IMG/VR virus record: IMGVR_UViG_2531839233_000005
Span: 1 to 4,571 of that record
Direction: 5' to 3' (one strand)
DNA from: a virus
Taxonomy: Duplodnaviria; Heunggongvirae; Uroviricota; Caudoviricetes
DNA: 4,571 nt
The position numbers were made by a program, and so were the translations under genes. How positions within the stretch are numbered: position 1 is the stretch's first letter; each line of letters begins with the position of its first letter. The notes beneath the pieces were generated by a model. That model was given only the letters and a program-made list of their open reading frames with translations. It was not told the origin of the DNA and did not search any database. Positions 1 through 4,571 of this stretch are shown in pieces.

Positions 1-44
1 GCTGATCCCTGGACGCCTTCCATTCTGATGTTTGACTCGCCCAC
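1..44 (-). CDS. Possible 5' end of first gene of a leftward early operon (partial, runs off window start); product unknown
   Basis: Minus-strand GTG at 44-42 preceded by GAGGA (reverse complement of 52-56) with 7-nt spacing; frame stays open to the window edge (VGESNIRMEGVQGS...). Only 14 codons are visible. Lies downstream of the predicted leftward promoter at 124-153. Confidence 0.25.
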   Translation of the reverse strand, partial: MGESNIRMEGVQGS

Positions 45-123
45 TGAGAAATCCTCTGCTTCCCCTTAACGCCGGGTAGCGGAACTGTTTGCTGAGAACA
101 CCGTGCGGTGTCTTGATGAGTAG

Positions 124-176
124 AATTTAGAATAGCCTAAGAGTTATGGTCAAGCTTTTTGTGTAGAAAAACCTAA
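124..176 (-). promoter_or_regulatory. PL-like leftward promoter with two operator-like palindromes (OL-like)
   Basis: Minus-strand -35 TTGACC (reverse complement of 148-153), 18-nt spacer, -10 TAAATT (reverse complement of 124-129). TTAG-aatagc-CTAA at 127-140 overlaps the -10 and spacer; gTAG-aaaaac-CTAA at 163-176 lies just upstream of the -35. Both share the motif found in the 661-727 operator cluster. Confidence 0.4.
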
Positions 177-251
177 GCTTCTTGATGTAAAAAACACAAG
201 TATTTGAAAGTTTGTGCTTTTTATTACAGAGAGTTGCGAAAAAAAGGGGGG

Positions 252-659
252 TTATTTATTTGCGCTTCTTTTGCGAGCTTTGAGTAGTTCTTCAAAAAGT
301 TTGTTGAAATTCTCAACTCGAGCACGCATCTCTGACAACAGAGCCTTTTGCTCTGACTCAGGCAGTGCGTCGAACAGTTGAAGCAACTCTTTTTGATCTT
401 CTGTCAGATTGACTGGCTGATTATCTGGGATCGGTTCGCCTGGTTGCTTATCTTCATCTCCAAAAAGAAGCCAAGTCGGCGAGCACTGAAGCGCCTGGCT
501 CAGTGCGAATAATCTCTTCCCCGCTGGCTGTGTTTCATCTCTTTCCCATTGAGAAATTGTTACGTGAGCGACTTTGACCAGCTTACCTAATGCGGCCTGA
601 GACAGTTTTAATTTTTTTCGCCTGTATAAGAGGCGAGCACCGAAGGTTTCGTTTTTCAT
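252..659 (-). CDS. dicA: Prophage repressor, DicA-like (XRE-family HTH, CI analogue), 135 aa
   Basis: Complete 135-aa ORF. N-terminal XRE-type HTH (LSQAALGKLVKVAHVTISQWERDETQP). Length and the C-terminal segment (LFALSQALQCSPTWLLFGDEDKQP ... ALPESEQ ... EMRARVENFNKLFEELLKARKR) match what I recall of E. coli Qin DicA. Divergent from a Cro-like gene. No SD upstream of the ATG. Confidence 0.85.
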   Translation of the reverse strand: MKNETFGARLLYRRKKLKLSQAALGKLVKVAHVTISQWERDETQPAGKRLFALSQALQCSPTWLLFGDEDKQPGEPIPDNQPVNLTEDQKELLQLFDALPESEQKALLSEMRARVENFNKLFEELLKARKRSANK

Positions 660-667
660 ATTAGGTA

Positions 668-696
668 ATTCTAATTTTTCTTGACTTAGGTTTCTC
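668..696 (-). promoter_or_regulatory. PRM-like promoter for the repressor gene, probably giving a leaderless or near-leaderless mRNA
   Basis: Minus-strand -10 TAGAAT (reverse complement of 668-673) ends 8 nt before the A of the repressor ATG (659). Weak -35 (GAGAAA, reverse complement of 691-696) at 17-nt spacing. The -10 is overlapped by the operator site at 661-674. No SD for the repressor. Confidence 0.35.
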
Positions 697-709
697 TACG
701 ATCTAGTTT
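681..709 (+). promoter_or_regulatory. PR-like rightward early promoter
   Basis: -35 TTGACT at 681-686, 17-nt spacer, -10 TAGTTT at 704-709 (TA...T conserved). Overlapped by operator sites at 686-699 and 710-727. Drives the Cro-like gene, whose RBS AAGGG (724-728) sits 7 nt before the ATG at 736. Confidence 0.4.
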
Positions 710-735
710 CCTTAGGAAAATCTAAGGGTTTCGAT

Positions 736-963
736 ATGTTGAAAATTGATGCTATAGCGTTTTTTGGCAGCAAAACAAAGCTTGCCAATGTCGCAGGAGT
801 TAGGCTGGCAAGCGTTGCTGCATGGGGGGAACTGGTTCCTGAAGGTCGCGCGATGCGCCTGCAAGAGGCATCCGGCGGGGAACTTCAGTACGACCCCAAA
901 GTTTATGACGAATATCGTAAGGCAAAGCGGGCGGGGCGGTTGAACAATGAAAATCACCACTGA
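736..963 (+). CDS. dicC: Cro-like regulator, DicC/YdaS family, 75 aa
   Basis: Complete 75-aa ORF divergent from the DicA-like repressor. Motifs typical of DicC/YdaS Cro analogues (FGSKTKLA..AGV..ASV..W, then GGELQYDPKVY). The symbol is assigned from synteny and recalled similarity, not from a search. Confidence 0.75.
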   Translation: MLKIDAIAFFGSKTKLANVAGVRLASVAAWGELVPEGRAMRLQEASGGELQYDPKVYDEYRKAKRAGRLNNENHH

Positions 964-1498
964 ACAGGTTTGTGAGGCTCTGGATACCTGGGTATGCCGA
1001 CCAGGAATGACACAGGAGCAGGCGACGATATTAATCACGGAAGCATTCTGGGCTCTGAAAGAACGCCCGAACATCGATGTTCAACGCGTCACGTTTAATG
1101 ATGGCGAGGTTGATCAACGGGCGCTGGGCGTTAACCGGGTGAAGATATTCGAACGCTGGAAAGCTATCGACACCAGAGATAAGCGTGACAAATTCACGGC
1201 GCTGATTCCGGCAATTATGGAGGCTATCCGGATCAGCGATTTCAGATTGTATTGTGAAATTACTGACGGAAAAAGCATTACGTACATGATCGCCGGGTTA
1301 AACAAAGAATATGGCGATGTGGTGGAGTCCGGGCTGCTTTTTGCGGATCCAGTTGTTGTGGAACGTGAGACTGACGAGCTTATAGAAAAAGCTATTGCTT
1401 TCAAGCACGCGTATCGTCAGCAATACCAATATTACTTTGCAGATAAACAAATGTCTGCCAGGGGGGCGTATGAGTATCGATGCACTACGATGGGCTAA
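947..1498 (+). CDS. YdaT-like protein (CII-analogous regulator / 'toxin YdaT' family), 183 aa
   Basis: Complete ORF starting at an ATG that overlaps the dicC-like stop by 17 nt. Sits immediately after the Cro-like gene, as ydaS-ydaT does in Rac and CP-933P. Contains the LIPAI motif and the MKI..E N-terminus I recall from YdaT. Longer than the roughly 140 aa I recall for K-12 YdaT. Confidence 0.55.
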   Translation: MKITTEQVCEALDTWVCRPGMTQEQATILITEAFWALKERPNIDVQRVTFNDGEVDQRALGVNRVKIFERWKAIDTRDKRDKFTALIPAIMEAIRISDFRLYCEITDGKSITYMIAGLNKEYGDVVESGLLFADPVVVERETDELIEKAIAFKHAYRQQYQYYFADKQMSARGAYEYRCTTMG

Positions 1499-2510
1499 AA
1501 AGGTGAAAACCGGCAGTTCATCCAGTAAGTCAGTATTGACCTGGCTTGCTGATATGTGCGGTGCCGATTTGTGTGCATACCCGTCTGTATCTGCACTGGC
1601 AGAAGTAACGGAACTGAACAAAAAGACTGTGCAGGACAGCTTACGACACCTGATGGAGATTGGGTTAATTGTTGATACCGGTGAGAGAAAAGGCAGAACA
1701 AAGCAAATTGTGGTGTACCGACTTATCGGTGTAGAAGAAAGTGTTGCCGAGCCTGAATACACCCAAAAACGGGAGTCTTTAAAGGTGGGTAAAATTGGTG
1801 CTGTTAATAAAAACAGTACCGAAAATGGTTATGTTTCAGCACAAAACAGACCCAAAAACAGAACTCTTAGCTGCATGGAAAATAACCAAAGACACCCAAA
1901 TTTTCCATCAAAGACACCCAAAAACGGATCACGGAACCCAAAGGAACCCAAAGATCTAAACCCCACACATAACGCACGCGAGAGTGCTCCGACCAGTGAG
2001 CAGGAAGTTTTGTCGTTACAGGCAGCCCCCCCTGTATTCCTGTATGGCCTGAGCGAACCCATCGGAAAATTCCCGATGAGCGATAGCTGGTATCCGTCAC
2101 GGGATTTTCGACGACGGGCTGCGTTGTGGGGGATGGCTTTGCCGGAGACAGAATTTACACCTGCTGAACTTGCCGCCTTCCGGGACTACTGGGCAGCGGA
2201 GGGGAAAGTGTTTACGCAGATTCAGTGGGAGCAGAAATTCGCCCGTCACGTAAATCACGTCAGGGCGCAGGTTAAACCAGTCAGCAAAGGGGTAAACCAT
2301 GCAGCAGCACCAGGTGGCACCGCATCACGGGCAGTTCAGGAAATTCGGGCAGCACGTGAGCAGTGGGAACGTGAAAACGGATTTATCAGCAACGGAAACG
2401 GCCTGGAAGCTGTGGGAACTCATGGGGGAGGTTTATTCGAACCGCTGGACCCAGAAGAACGGGGCCGCACCTTCGAAGCTCTGGATTGCCCAGATTGGTG
2501 CGATGACTGA
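1470..2510 (+). CDS. Phage replication initiator (O analogue): N-terminal HTH, low-complexity linker, DnaT-like C-terminal domain; 346 aa
   Basis: ATG at 1470 preceded by a G-rich SD (GGGGGG, 1461-1466); the TTG at 1395 from the ORF track is rejected. N-terminus MSIDALRWAKK...LIVDTGERKGR is typical of prophage initiator wHTH. C-terminal W..PS..F....W..F..W..KF..HV pattern resembles the DnaT ssDNA-binding domain. The linker is encoded by the iteron-like repeats. Confidence 0.8.
   Translation: MSIDALRWAKKVKTGSSSSKSVLTWLADMCGADLCAYPSVSALAEVTELNKKTVQDSLRHLMEIGLIVDTGERKGRTKQIVVYRLIGVEESVAEPEYTQKRESLKVGKIGAVNKNSTENGYVSAQNRPKNRTLSCMENNQRHPNFPSKTPKNGSRNPKEPKDLNPTHNARESAPTSEQEVLSLQAAPPVFLYGLSEPIGKFPMSDSWYPSRDFRRRAALWGMALPETEFTPAELAAFRDYWAAEGKVFTQIQWEQKFARHVNHVRAQVKPVSKGVNHAAAPGGTASRAVQEIRAAREQWERENGFISNGNGLEAVGTHGGGLFEPLDPEERGRTFEALDCPDWCDD
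1757..1953. repeat. Iteron-like direct repeats (candidate replication origin) inside the initiator gene
   Basis: CCCAAA cores at 1762-1767, 1851-1856, 1895-1900, 1917-1922, 1937-1942 and 1947-1952. ACACCCAAAAACGG is repeated exactly at 1759-1772 and 1914-1927. AAGACACCCAAA is repeated at 1889-1900 and 1911-1922. GGAACCCAAA is in tandem at 1933-1952. The four distal cores are spaced about 22, 20 and 10 bp. An AT-rich stretch lies at about 1786-1845. Confidence 0.5.
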
Positions 2511-2964
2511 ACAGCAAATCCGTCTGGTGTGCCGTCAGTGCATGGACCGCTGCCGGGCGGGTGAAACGTGGCCCCCGGACCTGGCTGAGTTTGTTGCGCT
2601 GATTTCGGAGAGTGGGGCAAATCCATTTGGTCTTACGGTGGATGCCGTGATGGAAGAGTACCGGCGCTGGCGCAATGAATCCTGGCGATACGACGGGAGT
2701 GATAAATACCCGTGGCCACAGCCTGTGCTGTACCACATCTGCCTCGAAATGCGTACCAGAGGGATTGAGCGCCAGATGACGCAAGGTGAGTTAAAACGAC
2801 TTGCGGAACGGCAACTGACGAAATGGGCAAAGCATGTTGGTAACGGGATGAGTGTTCCGCCAGTGCGACGACAACTGGAAGGGGCGAAACACCCGCAAGG
2901 GCCAACGCCAATTGAACGGCTGAAACAGGAATACGAACGCCGGAAGGCAGCTGGTTTTATTTGA
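2299..2964 (+). CDS. Replication protein P-like (DnaB helicase loader), 221 aa; start uncertain
   Basis: C-terminal half aligns by eye with lambda P (WPPDLAEFVALI vs LPSPGQFVAWC; YDGSDKYPWPQPVLYHICLEMRTRG..QGELKRLAERQL vs YPDAESYPWKSNAHYWLVTNLYQNMRANALTDAELRRKAADEL). ATG at 2299 has SD AAAGGGG (2286-2292) at 6-nt spacing. Alternative starts are 2422 and 2503; the 2503 ATG nearly abuts the initiator stop at 2508-2510. Confidence 0.7.
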   Translation: MQQHQVAPHHGQFRKFGQHVSSGNVKTDLSATETAWKLWELMGEVYSNRWTQKNGAAPSKLWIAQIGAMTEQQIRLVCRQCMDRCRAGETWPPDLAEFVALISESGANPFGLTVDAVMEEYRRWRNESWRYDGSDKYPWPQPVLYHICLEMRTRGIERQMTQGELKRLAERQLTKWAKHVGNGMSVPPVRRQLEGAKHPQGPTPIERLKQEYERRKAAGFI

Positions 2965-2997
2965 ATCTGAGAAACGATTTTGTCGGAGGAAATATTA

Positions 2998-3714
2998 ATG
3001 GAAACCGTATTTGACGCACTGAAAGCACTGAAAAAAGCCTCTTCACAGGTAGTGGCATCGCGCCTTGGAATTAGTCGTGAAGAGGCTGTCAACGAACTGT
3101 GGAAACTGAAACGCCGTGGAGAAGCGGATAACAAGGGGGCGATATGGTGGCTGACTCAGGCTGGTGAAAGTGAACCGGTGTCACCGGTACCGAAAGTGAC
3201 GGCGCAAATGCTGACAGAGGCGATTGAACAACATGGCCCACAAACGGCGGATGAACTGGCATTGATGTTCGGAATTACCTCCCGCCGGGCGAATTCATCG
3301 CTGGCAATGGCAATCAGCAAAGGGTGTCTGATTCGCGTGAATCAGGATGGTAAATTTCGTTACTGCATACCGGGCGTTGATTTACCGGCAGAGCCGAAAG
3401 CAGCATCCGTAGCTGAAACGGAGGGTAAAGCCCTTCCTCAGCCAGCTGGTGTTGCGTTACCAGTCCAGGAAACGGCTGCACAGGAAGAAATTAAAACAGA
3501 AGCGGTGGAGGACATTGTGAAGTTGCAGCAATCGTTCACTGAAGCGAAAGCAGATGACCTGATTCTACCATCGCTGCATGTGGCTAACCGCGAGCTGCGC
3601 CGGGCGAAAAGTAATGTTCAGAAGTGGGAGCGAGTCTGTGCTGCGCTACGGGAACTGAACAAACACAGGGATATTCTCCGGGATATTACCGCCACCAGAG
3701 AGCAGCAGCGGTGA
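2998..3714 (+). CDS. Hypothetical protein, 238 aa: two predicted winged-helix-like segments, acidic/Pro-Ala linker, charged helical C-terminus
   Basis: ATG at 2998 with SD GGAGGA (2985-2990) at 7-nt spacing; the TTG at 2980 is rejected. Residues about 1-55 and 70-125 look like wHTH units ([19 protein letters not shown]; [29 protein letters not shown]). Stop TGA 3712-3714 overlaps the next start. Confidence 0.75.
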
Positions 3715-4028
3715 GTGGCTGGAAGAAGTGGCGCTGGGCTGAAATCCTGATACTCCGGCAGTGTGCGGGAACGATGAGAGTCGAAAGCATCGGTTATCTG
3801 ATTGGCCGTAGTGAGTCAGCCGTCAGGACGAAAGCGCGGGAACTGGGTATCAGCATGATGTTACGGGGTGATTATCACCAGTCAGCCAAATGTTCACAGC
3901 GTGATATTGAGCTGGCGTGGCAACTGCATCAGCGTGGTGTACCCCGACGGGAAATTGCCGAAAAGTTTGGGATGAAGTTGGGCGCAGTGAATAACTACGT
4001 TTATTTCGACAGGAGGGTTCAGGAGTGA
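3711..4028 (+). CDS. Small dual-HTH DNA-binding protein with GcrA-like N-terminal segment, 105 aa
   Basis: GTG at 3711 overlaps the upstream stop (GTGA), implying translational coupling. [42 protein letters not shown] resembles the GcrA N-terminal HTH pattern (W..E..L......IA..LG.SRNAV.GK..RLGL). A second HTH-like segment is [19 protein letters not shown]. Alternative start ATG 3774. Confidence 0.6.
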
Positions 4029-4327
4029 GGGTGAGGGTTTATATCGCCGGTCCGATGACGGGATATGAAAATTTTAACCGCGAGGCATTTCACAAAACGG
4101 AAGAGGTGCTGAAACGGGAAGGGCATACCGTTTTAAACCCGGCAGTACTTCCGGACGGGCTGACTCAGCCACACTACATGGATATTTGCATGGCAATGCT
4201 CCGTTGCGTGGATGCGGTTTACATGCTGAAAGGCTGGCAGCAGTCGGCAGGTGCAGGGGCTGAGCTGGCACTGGAGGAGAAACCGGGCCATGCGGTGATT
4301 TTTCAGGAGGTGGGCAGTGAATATTGA
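4025..4327 (+). CDS. DUF4406-family protein (nucleoside 2-deoxyribosyltransferase-like fold), 100 aa
   Basis: GTG at 4025 overlaps the upstream stop (GTGA), with AGGAGG (4011-4016) 8 nt upstream. N-terminal VYIAGPMTG, then NPA and GW..S.GA..E matching what I recall of DUF4406/NDT-like small phage proteins. Confidence 0.7.
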   Translation: MRVRVYIAGPMTGYENFNREAFHKTEEVLKREGHTVLNPAVLPDGLTQPHYMDICMAMLRCVDAVYMLKGWQQSAGAGAELALEEKPGHAVIFQEVGSEY

Positions 4328-4571
4328 CCCGGCGATAACGATTGATATGGCCCTGAACGCCGGCCTGGCACTTCTTGGTTATTTCTACATTATGTTCTGC
4401 AGCGGACGATGGCTGTCACTGTTGTTCATGAAAAAATGGAATAAACGCCGTAAGCAGGAGCAACGCCAGAAGGCAATGGATGCATTTTTCGAAGCCTTCG
4501 GAATTGACGGCATGGAACCAGGGGATCCAGCTCGCGCAATCAGCAGAGGGGGCGTAGTAATCCTTGTATAC
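4317..4571 (+). CDS. Hypothetical membrane-anchored protein (partial, continues past window end)
   Basis: Absent from the ORF track because it has no stop in the window. GTG at 4317 with strong SD AGGAGG (4305-4310) at 6-nt spacing; overlaps the DUF4406 stop by 11 nt. 85 codons open to the window end. Predicted TM helix (ALNAGLALLGYFYIMFCSGRWLSLLFM) followed by a basic stretch (KKWNKRRKQEQRQK). Confidence 0.5.
   Translation, partial: MNIDPAITIDMALNAGLALLGYFYIMFCSGRWLSLLFMKKWNKRRKQEQRQKAMDAFFEAFGIDGMEPGDPARAISRGGVVILVY

Follow-up and report, generated by a model that had tools for sequence, protein, structure and literature searches.

A 212-nucleotide out-of-frame overlap between the replication initiator and P-like helicase-loader genes of a lambdoid prophage, with constraint passing from one frame to the other

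The 4,571-nucleotide (nt) stretch of DNA analysed here (the window; positions 1-4,571 of the IMG/VR virus record IMGVR_UViG_2531839233_000005, Caudoviricetes) is the early-right region of a lambdoid (Rac/PPompW-like) prophage, and it carries, one after the other, the genes for a replication initiator and for a helicase loader resembling protein P of phage lambda (the P-like protein, or P). The two open reading frames (ORFs) overlap for 212 nt (2299-2510), with P shifted by +1 relative to the initiator. Our comparisons indicate that translation of the P-like gene probably begins at 2299 and that the overlap is translated in both frames along its whole length, an interpretation to which we assign, on sequence evidence, a probability of roughly 85%. 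The gene structure, the conserved start, the avoidance of stop codons and the partitioning of selection between the two frames were all observed across the related loci. The long dual-coding overlap is a genuine and well-supported new example of a known phenomenon, and its distinctive feature is that constraint passes from one frame to the other half-way along it. Literature searches found no description of this overlap, although such an absence is no proof of novelty. The features on which the argument depends are the following.

1470-2510, plus strand: replication initiator gene, 346 amino acids (aa), with an N-terminal helix-turn-helix (HTH), a DnaT-like domain and a 79-residue tail
2070-2270, plus strand: DnaT-like single-stranded DNA-binding domain (initiator residues 201-267), single-coding, upstream of the overlap
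2286-2292, plus strand: Shine-Dalgarno (SD) site of the P-like gene, AAAGGGG, inside the initiator coding sequence
2299-2964, plus strand: P-like helicase-loader gene, 221 aa, with its stop codon at 2962-2964
2299-2301, plus strand: the probable true start codon of the P-like gene, made of the last two bases of the initiator codon CAT and the first of GCA
2299-2382, plus strand: P-like leader (residues 1-28), predicted disordered, weakly constrained
2319-2378, plus strand: conserved initiator-tail segment TASRAVQEIRAAREQWEREN (residues 284-303), probably helical, lying over the P leader
2383-2499, plus strand: first three helices of the P N-terminal domain (residues 29-67), inside the initiator gene, placed by AlphaFold2 and invariant residues
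2404-2507, plus strand: distal initiator tail, Gly/Asp/Glu-rich, ending in EPLDPEERGRTFEALDCPDWCDD, kept open, amino-acid constraint undetectable
2422-2424, plus strand: internal ATG (Met42), inside the predicted helix 29-46; RefSeq P start in Salmonella, Klebsiella and Citrobacter relatives
2503-2510, plus strand: ATGACTGA with the ATG of Met69; RefSeq P start in E. coli, overlapping the initiator stop codon TGA at 2508-2510

Geometry and conservation of the overlap

The initiator gene runs from the ATG at 1470 to its TGA, coordinates that its relatives in RefSeq share. The P-like frame opens at 2296, directly after a TAA (2293-2295), its first ATG is that at 2299, and further in-frame ATGs occur at 2422 and 2503. 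ORF analysis agrees with the initial annotation that both frames stay open through the overlap, where the third codon position of P coincides with the first of the initiator and the third of the initiator with the second of P.

We compared 42 loci (one genome per species), nine annotated loci from E. coli or phages, 80 loci from IMG/VR and several Vibrio phages. The intact loci from Enterobacterales number 44, representing 22 lineages with less than 80% nucleotide identity and about 20 genera. In all 44 the initiator ORF lies in frame -1 relative to P, with its stop codon 29-101 nt past the codon for P Trp50, so that the two genes overlap by 149-224 nt; among the genera are Escherichia, Citrobacter, Enterobacter, Klebsiella, Pluralibacter, Pectobacterium and Rahnella, as well as Serratia, Erwinia, Buttiauxella, Rouxiella, Samsonia and Limnobaculum. 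The Vibrio phages D67, K250, D68 and 1.214.O, whose P proteins are only 24-31% identical, share this layout, their two genes overlapping by about 191-212 nt, and D67 even retains the local TAA-ACC-ATG context of the window. A metagenomic relative (L135) has an overlap of 137 nt, the initiator stopping directly after the conserved tail helix. Both frames are intact in all 80 close relatives from IMG/VR (L055-L134), where the overlap measures 209 or 212 nt, the sole polymorphism in its length being a 3-nt indel that is in frame for both genes. No intact homologue carries a stop codon in either frame inside the overlap, which is the opposite of the first outcome that the initial annotation had named as refuting.

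The IMG/VR scan with a mixed alignment returned only relatives of 94-100% identity, which served for polymorphism counts and not for depth, and the scan with two Vibrio P-like proteins found a single locus. A protein search with the initiator tail alone was uninformative, yielding only eight partial, near-identical proteins of E. coli.

Among otherwise complete loci a single disrupted copy was seen, that of Leclercia adecarboxylata NCTC13032 (L044, 2974-3647), where a frameshift in the overlap joins the P leader to the initiator-tail frame and splits P. P-like genes without an upstream initiator were found in two loci (L037, 2992-3618; L045, 2974-3543) beside apparently chromosomal genes, of which one resembles ttcA and the other a transporter; in L045 the gene starts only 10 residues before the W.LW motif. 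Both are probably decayed prophage remnants, and given their position next to chromosomal genes we rejected the idea that they represent an ancestral non-overlapping state.

The start of the P-like gene

An ATG is present at the position equivalent to 2299 in all 44 Enterobacterales loci and in the Vibrio phages, and in the Enterobacterales loci it is preceded at 6-10 nt by GGAGG, GGGG or GAGG. The initiator residues encoded over it vary (H, N, Y or D followed by A, V, G or E, in contexts such as VNHA, TENA, NSHV, TGYV, GSDA, GFYA, QQHE and others), yet the codons always read xAT-Gxx; the initiator residues by themselves would preserve this ATG with a probability of about 0.43 per lineage. The initial annotation had called the SD and ATG of the window good, and this is borne out: AAAGGGG lies 6 nt before the ATG, with a duplex energy of -7.9 kcal/mol. 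Across lineages the mean anti-SD energy is -8.2 kcal/mol at the 2299 site, against -5.1 at position 42, -4.5 at position 69 and -2.6 for background positions, only 2.4% of which are as strong as the SD of the 2299 site.

The annotated starts differ among genera. RefSeq, through the Prokaryotic Genome Annotation Pipeline (PGAP), places the start at the 2503 equivalent in every inspected E. coli genome, so that the protein has 153 aa and the two genes meet in an 8-nt ATGACTGA junction, and assigns 180-181 aa to the family members from Salmonella, Klebsiella and Citrobacter. Forms of 212-223 aa, corresponding to a 2299-type start, are in the databases too, including entries from Symbiopectobacterium, some Salmonella and some E. 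coli, and longer entries (215-223 or 180-181 aa) exist for other genera and in some E. coli records (P0002, P0004, P0040, P0061). The GenBank annotation of PPompW has a 140-aa "phage replication protein" starting even later than the 2503 equivalent. The forms of 153, 180-181 and 212-223 aa are all named replication protein P in the databases.

The P-like protein and its N-terminal domain

By profile and fold the P-like protein is a helicase loader of the P family. It matches Pfam Phage_lambda_P (PF06992) with 58.3 bits (cut-off 26) over residues 59-188, and phrog_109, annotated as a P-like helicase loader, covers residues 19-221 (E 2e-62); homologues of 212-223 aa cover 96-100% of its length down to 43-55% identity. 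An alignment of 31 homologues (down to 43% identity) has W50, K53, N54, G55, P58 and W62 as invariant residues; when the Vibrio sequences are added, W39, K53, N54, G55 and W62 are invariant, with W50 and P58 nearly so. Trp36 and Glu40 are conserved as well and, like Trp39, lie upstream of Met42. An exhaustive search with P residues 1-100 showed that distant relatives (29-45% identity) align from query residues of about 21-38.

The AlphaFold2 model built on the family alignment has a mean predicted local distance difference test score (pLDDT) of 76. Residues 1-27 are predicted to be disordered (pLDDT below 50), and confident helices comprise residues 29-46, 48-54, 60-67 and 71-86, the first three with pLDDT values of 82-90. 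In Foldseek the top matches of the model are lambda P chains from complexes with DnaB (9oa1_Z/Y/V; probability 1.0, template-modelling (TM) score 0.43-0.53), together with 8v9s, for which the TMt is 0.88 and the root-mean-square deviation 1.0 over 70 columns. The initial annotation had described the N-terminal part as loosely alignable to that of lambda P. At the sequence level this likeness is weak, since hhalign recognizes homology only between P residues 86-194 and lambda P 94-203 (probability 92%) and the match in a profile search of PDB begins at residue 57, but the whole model does match full-length lambda P in fold (TM score 0.5, probability 1.0). By homology to lambda P, the protein would bind and load the host DnaB helicase and be recruited by its cognate initiator. 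The C-terminal part of lambda P (residues 103-233) suffices to bind DnaB (PMC6391071).

Five proteins of 800-1,048 aa (P0145, P0150, P0154, P0157 and P0172) matched residues 12-60 of the P query in 5-10 repeated stretches; these matches to the leader and first helix may reflect compositional similarity or a repeat protein.

The initiator and its tail

The initiator combines Pfam HTH_36 with a DnaT domain (PF17948; 61 bits, cut-off 25; residues 201-267). Residues 194-278 match positions 82-166 of the 179 in the NCBIfam model of DnaT itself (NF002770), with 93.5 bits against an equivalog cut-off of 201; the protein has a DnaT-like domain but is not DnaT. Its Gly-rich tail ends in ALDCPDWCDD, in line with the DCPDWCDD of the initial annotation, whereas its length past the DnaT-like domain, given there as 76 codons, is in fact 79, the Pfam domain ending at residue 267 of 346. 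A proximal motif of the tail (SRAVQ.IRAAR..W) is conserved on its own across Enterobacterales and still recognizable in the Vibrio phages. The distal-tail motifs EPLD.EER and D..DW, as read from the sequence, are fully forced by the codons of the invariant P stretches NRW..KNG and WIAQIG.

Openness of the two frames and avoidance of stop codons

For a single sequence, the claim of the initial annotation that two open frames of this length are unlikely by chance is weak: in other long ORFs of the related loci, 5.7% of 70-codon windows are open in the +1 frame, and significance comes only from comparison across lineages. Given the protein sequences of the window, the probability of an open frame is 0.92 for the P frame over 2299-2403 and 0.29 for the initiator frame over 2404-2507. 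Across lineages the former has a mean of 0.71 given the initiator protein, again a weak argument per sequence, and the probability that the initiator frame is open to its observed stop averages 0.23, with values no higher than 0.33 in 21 of 22 lineages.

We counted stop codons across lineages, re-drawing the synonymous codons of the constrained protein and scoring stops in the other frame over fixed segments. This calibrated test replaces one that took the observed stop position as a condition and whose product of probabilities overstated significance. The initiator-frame test covers the first 23 codons of the distal tail (from W36 to Trp50+8), where no stop was found in 23 codons × 22 lineages against 20.3 expected (about 17 after calibration). 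No P-frame stop occurs in the first half of the overlap, against 7.6 expected. On the single-coding flanks used for calibration, the P-only part had 155 stops observed against 181 simulated, and the P-frame test gave 92 against 91.

Selection on each frame

Frame-specific selection was estimated with OLGenie-style counts, N and S in the ratios denoting nonsynonymous and synonymous changes, and with single-coding controls; where several values are given for a region, they run from close to distant pairs (CI, confidence interval).

Initiator-only control: initiator dNN/dNS 0.24-0.70; P shadow frame dNN/dSN 0.73-1.05
P-only control: initiator shadow frame dNN/dNS 1.0-1.9; P dNN/dSN 0.10-0.53
2302-2403: initiator dNN/dNS 0.26, 0.65, 0.58, 0.75; P dNN/dSN 0.32 (CI 0.19-0.55), 0.67, 0.77, 0.96
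2404-2505: initiator dNN/dNS 0.49 (CI 0.17-1.8), 0.9, 1.2, 1.1; P dNN/dSN 0.07-0.5

In the control over the DnaT-like domain, the initiator had a dNN/dNS of 0.24-0.51 and the shadow P frame a dNN/dSN of 0.73-0.99. The conserved tail segment (2319-2378) gives an initiator dNN/dNS of 0.46-0.56, to be compared with the shadow controls of 1.0-1.9. The P ratio is 0.41 for residues 27-38, 0.33 for residues 32-43 and 0.13-0.41 over the helices encoded by 2383-2499; over 2422-2502 it is 0.13-0.38, equal to that of the P-only part. A sliding window places the constraint on the initiator at about 2317-2400 and that on P from about residues 25-30 (about 2375) onwards. Conservation is thus not confined to one frame, the other outcome that the initial annotation had named as refuting. 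Joint constraint on both frames is limited to about 2362-2412, and extends over the whole first half only among close relatives (P 0.27-0.32, the values of the P leader in close pairs; initiator 0.26).

The pattern is also seen in polymorphism. In 20 close haplotypes, the density of variants in 2302-2403 is 0.02 for those altering both proteins and 0.32-0.36 for those altering one, the former being 16-fold rarer, and the two classes are equal in the initiator-only control (0.08 versus 0.09). Within the overlap, P has 10-38% less synonymous diversity than in the P-only part.

Weighing the alternatives

Shorter versions of the P-like gene have to be considered before the start at 2299 is accepted. 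Were P translated only from the ATG at 2422, the overlap would shrink to 89 nt and the frame open from 2299 would be a by-product of the initiator sequence. This ATG is present in 24 of 26 lineages with an SD-like GGGA(G) upstream (-5.1 kcal/mol), it is the start that RefSeq has chosen for the 180-181-aa forms, the openness of the P frame over 2299-2403 comes cheaply, and the leader is unconstrained at moderate divergence. We nevertheless regard it as quite improbable that 2422 is the only start, because codon 42 is CTG in the remaining two lineages (L026 and the Vibrio phage D67) and Met42 therefore cannot be the universal start. Moreover, the invariant Trp39 and the conserved Trp36 and Glu40 lie upstream of it, the confident helix 29-46 spans it, P is under constraint already at residues 27-38, distant relatives align from residues 21-38, stops are missing from the P frame in the first half, and the SD and ATG at the 2299 equivalent are universal in spite of the varying initiator residues. 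Position 2422 may still serve as a secondary start. The RefSeq model for E. coli, in which P starts at 2503 and only the 8-nt ATGACTGA is shared in a classical translational-coupling junction, agrees with ATGA-type junctions being the rule for lambda O/P and for genes 15 and 14 of phi80, and it has been the choice of PGAP in every E. coli genome inspected. Yet codon 69 is ATG in only 14 of 26 lineages, with Leu or another residue in many homologues, the Pfam match begins 10 residues upstream (residue 59), and constraint on P over 2422-2502 is as strong as in the P-only part. This start would drop three confidently predicted helices as well as invariant residues, W39, W50, K53, N54, G55 and W62 all being upstream of Met69 and most of them, with P58, forming the best-conserved block of the whole protein; the comparison excludes it, and we leave it next to no probability.

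Other explanations accept the start at 2299 or bypass it. The overlap may be real while the distal 35 initiator residues (2404-2507) are a neutral run-on to a chance stop, so that only the proximal tail helix matters. The initiator ratio of about 1 in 2404-2505, the distal motifs forced by invariant P residues, and the earlier end of the tail in L028 and L046, or before the distal region in L135, all speak for it. The absence of initiator-frame stops where some 17-20 were expected, the low probability of an open frame up to the observed stop and the reduced synonymous diversity of P speak against it, and on balance we consider a neutral run-on unlikely. Programmed ribosomal frameshifting might instead produce an initiator-P fusion in place of two independently initiated proteins, and a phrog family (phrog_15931) and two database proteins (P0120 and P0104) indeed hold a DnaT-like and a P domain in one ORF. 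However, the contig encoding P0120 (L139, Logan contig ERR3685978_1776) has further frame disruptions in the initiator and in the C-terminus of P, its fusion ORF being probably a pseudogene or an assembly error, and phrog_15931, which matches both proteins, seems to be built on such disrupted fusion sequences. A -1 slip from the initiator frame would miss the P frame, the window lacks a slippery X XXY YYZ heptamer, nor do the lineages share a conserved one, and the conserved SD and ATG explain the expression of P; frameshifting is in our view very improbable. An RNA element as a further candidate was rejected, as Rfam had no match in the window and the folding of 2240-2360 is unremarkable (z = -1.3).

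Several observations nonetheless count against two independently translated frames or limit what can be built on them. The shorter P genes are those that the RefSeq and GenBank annotators chose. The SD is weak in two of the Vibrio phages (-3.5 and -3.8 kcal/mol). P leader residues 2-25 are free of amino-acid constraint at moderate and high divergence (dNN/dSN 0.84-0.96), so that it is the conserved SD and ATG together with stop avoidance, and only these, that suggest translation of the leader. The distal initiator tail likewise lacks amino-acid constraint, being truncated in L028 and L046 and absent in L135. The pairwise dN/dS-type statistics reuse sequences in many pairs, and the lineages of the stop tests are phylogenetically non-independent, the expectations assuming that synonymous sites are effectively independent below 80% identity.

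A possible recombination cassette

Having weighed these points, we retain the reading in which P starts at the ATG at 2299 with its own SD, 212 nt before the initiator stop and in the +1 frame, so that one stretch of mRNA encodes both the 70 C-terminal residues of the initiator and the 70 N-terminal residues of P. In the first half (about 2299-2400) the conserved, probably helical segment of the initiator tail faces only the disordered leader in the P frame, and in the second half (about 2380-2510) the first three helices of the P N-domain face a Gly/Asp/Glu-rich initiator tail set by the P codons and kept free of stops.

The tail of about 70 residues follows at least five Pfam-distinct initiator bodies, as listed here; further tail-bearing initiators have no Pfam match.

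HTH_36 plus DnaT: the initiator of the window
Phage_rep_O: L025
DUF1376: L026 and L029
HTH_36/DnaD_N without DnaT: L027, D67 and D68
DUF6291: 1.214.O

This evidence for a module rests on the multiple alignment and Pfam architectures, local alignments of the mosaic junction being blurred by gaps and by the shared N-terminal HTH. On the other side of the pair, P relatives with a different N-domain (gene 14 of phi80, X13065; HK225; L048-L051) share only residues 93-221 with P, which suggests domain-level mosaicism within P, the C-terminal part presumably binding DnaB. The existence of alternative N-domains fits an initiator-specific N-domain, and we infer that the P N-domain and the initiator tail are the partner-specific parts.

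In lambda, O recruits the P-DnaB complex, and by analogy the initiator tail would dock the N-domain of P. With the tail encoded in the 5' end of the loader gene, tail and loader would travel together through recombination, as a single cassette able to join many different origin-binding initiator bodies. The overlap might thus be a portable compatibility cassette, with the docking helix for the loader encoded within the 5' leader of the loader gene; we put this forward tentatively and hold it somewhat more likely to be wrong than right, and it counts against it that the tail-P interaction is deduced wholly from the analogy. If it is true, an origin-binding module recombining in frame just upstream of the P ribosome-binding site would automatically gain a P-recruiting tail, which would explain the same 70-residue end on O-type, DUF1376, DUF6291, HTH/DnaD-like and DnaT-like initiators and provide a mechanism enforcing the co-inheritance of an interaction interface in mosaic phage genomes.

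Single-base changes specific to one frame exist: T2300C would remove the P start and be silent in the initiator (CAT to CAC, His), and G2439T would be silent in P (TCG to TCT) and create a TAA at initiator codon 324.

Comparison with known systems and implications

Lambda O/P and phi80 genes 15 and 14 have the same order, an origin-binding initiator followed by a helicase loader, and in lambda P, too, about 40 leader residues precede the first conserved helix. These pairs, however, overlap by only 4 nt (ATGA), in contrast to the 149-224 nt out of frame found here. The N-domain of the P-like protein (residues 29-85) is family-specific and only weakly similar in sequence to that of lambda P, and the initiator differs from lambda O in being of the HTH plus DnaT-like type and not Phage_rep_O, although its relative L025 is O-type with the same tail. 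With E. coli DnaT the initiator shares the DnaT-like region, to which it adds the N-terminal HTH and the 70-residue tail overlapping P. A DnaT-like initiator followed by a P-family loader is likewise found in the Uetakevirus PAS61 ("primosomal protein I" and P), where the overlap is only 4 nt, the initiator ends about 30 residues past the DnaT domain and the N-terminal region of P is of the lambda type; the long overlap is thus no necessity of DnaT-like initiators.

Long same-strand out-of-frame overlaps in phages, or overprinting, are exemplified by lambda Rz/Rz1 and by phiX174 D/E and A/B/K, and typically one frame is ordered and constrained, the other disordered and weakly constrained. The pair described here resembles them in drawing two proteins from one stretch of DNA in different frames, but differs from lambda Rz/Rz1 and the phiX174 genes in being a terminal overlap of two full-size neighbours with no embedded gene, in that the role of the constrained frame swaps half-way, and in that the products are presumed partners in one pathway. 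To our knowledge, bacteria and phages have few verified same-strand overlaps of more than 100 nt, and most such cases prove to be annotation artefacts. The present one is conserved from Vibrio phages to enterobacterial prophages and links two proteins expected to interact at the origin, and the occurrence of one tail on unrelated initiator bodies suggests a way in which replication modules remain compatible when phages recombine.

The comparison further shows that the RefSeq annotation of E. coli systematically truncates the P gene, and that three different starts are in use across genera. The 153-aa entries WP_000139447.1 and WP_000139485.1 and the 140-aa GenBank model of PPompW represent the same gene with the same stop, with at least 68 residues omitted, including the most conserved block. 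Of 5,426 complete E. coli genomes, 1,253 carry DNA nearly identical to the window (95-99%), and the RefSeq "replication protein P" of more than 1,200 complete genomes is missing 68 N-terminal residues, among them the most conserved part of the N-domain.

Neighbouring genes and further observations

The other genes of the window noted here are these.

252-659, minus strand: dicA/cI-like repressor
736-963: cro/dicC-like gene
947-1498: YdaT-family gene
downstream of the P-like gene: DUF1627 gene

The DUF1627 gene starts at TTG 2980 in the mechanical ORF list and at the equivalent of ATG 2998 in RefSeq relatives. The operon contains two shorter out-of-frame overlaps, one of 17 nt between the cro-like and YdaT-family genes (947-963) and one of 29 nt between the YdaT-family and initiator genes (1470-1498), and both are likewise present in the RefSeq annotation of relatives. 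The replication region of a sequence deposited as "Actinobacillus phage vB_Apl-pPE4" (L003, PP818812.1) is 88% identical at the DNA level to the window prophage and to Rac-SA53, an unexpected host attribution.

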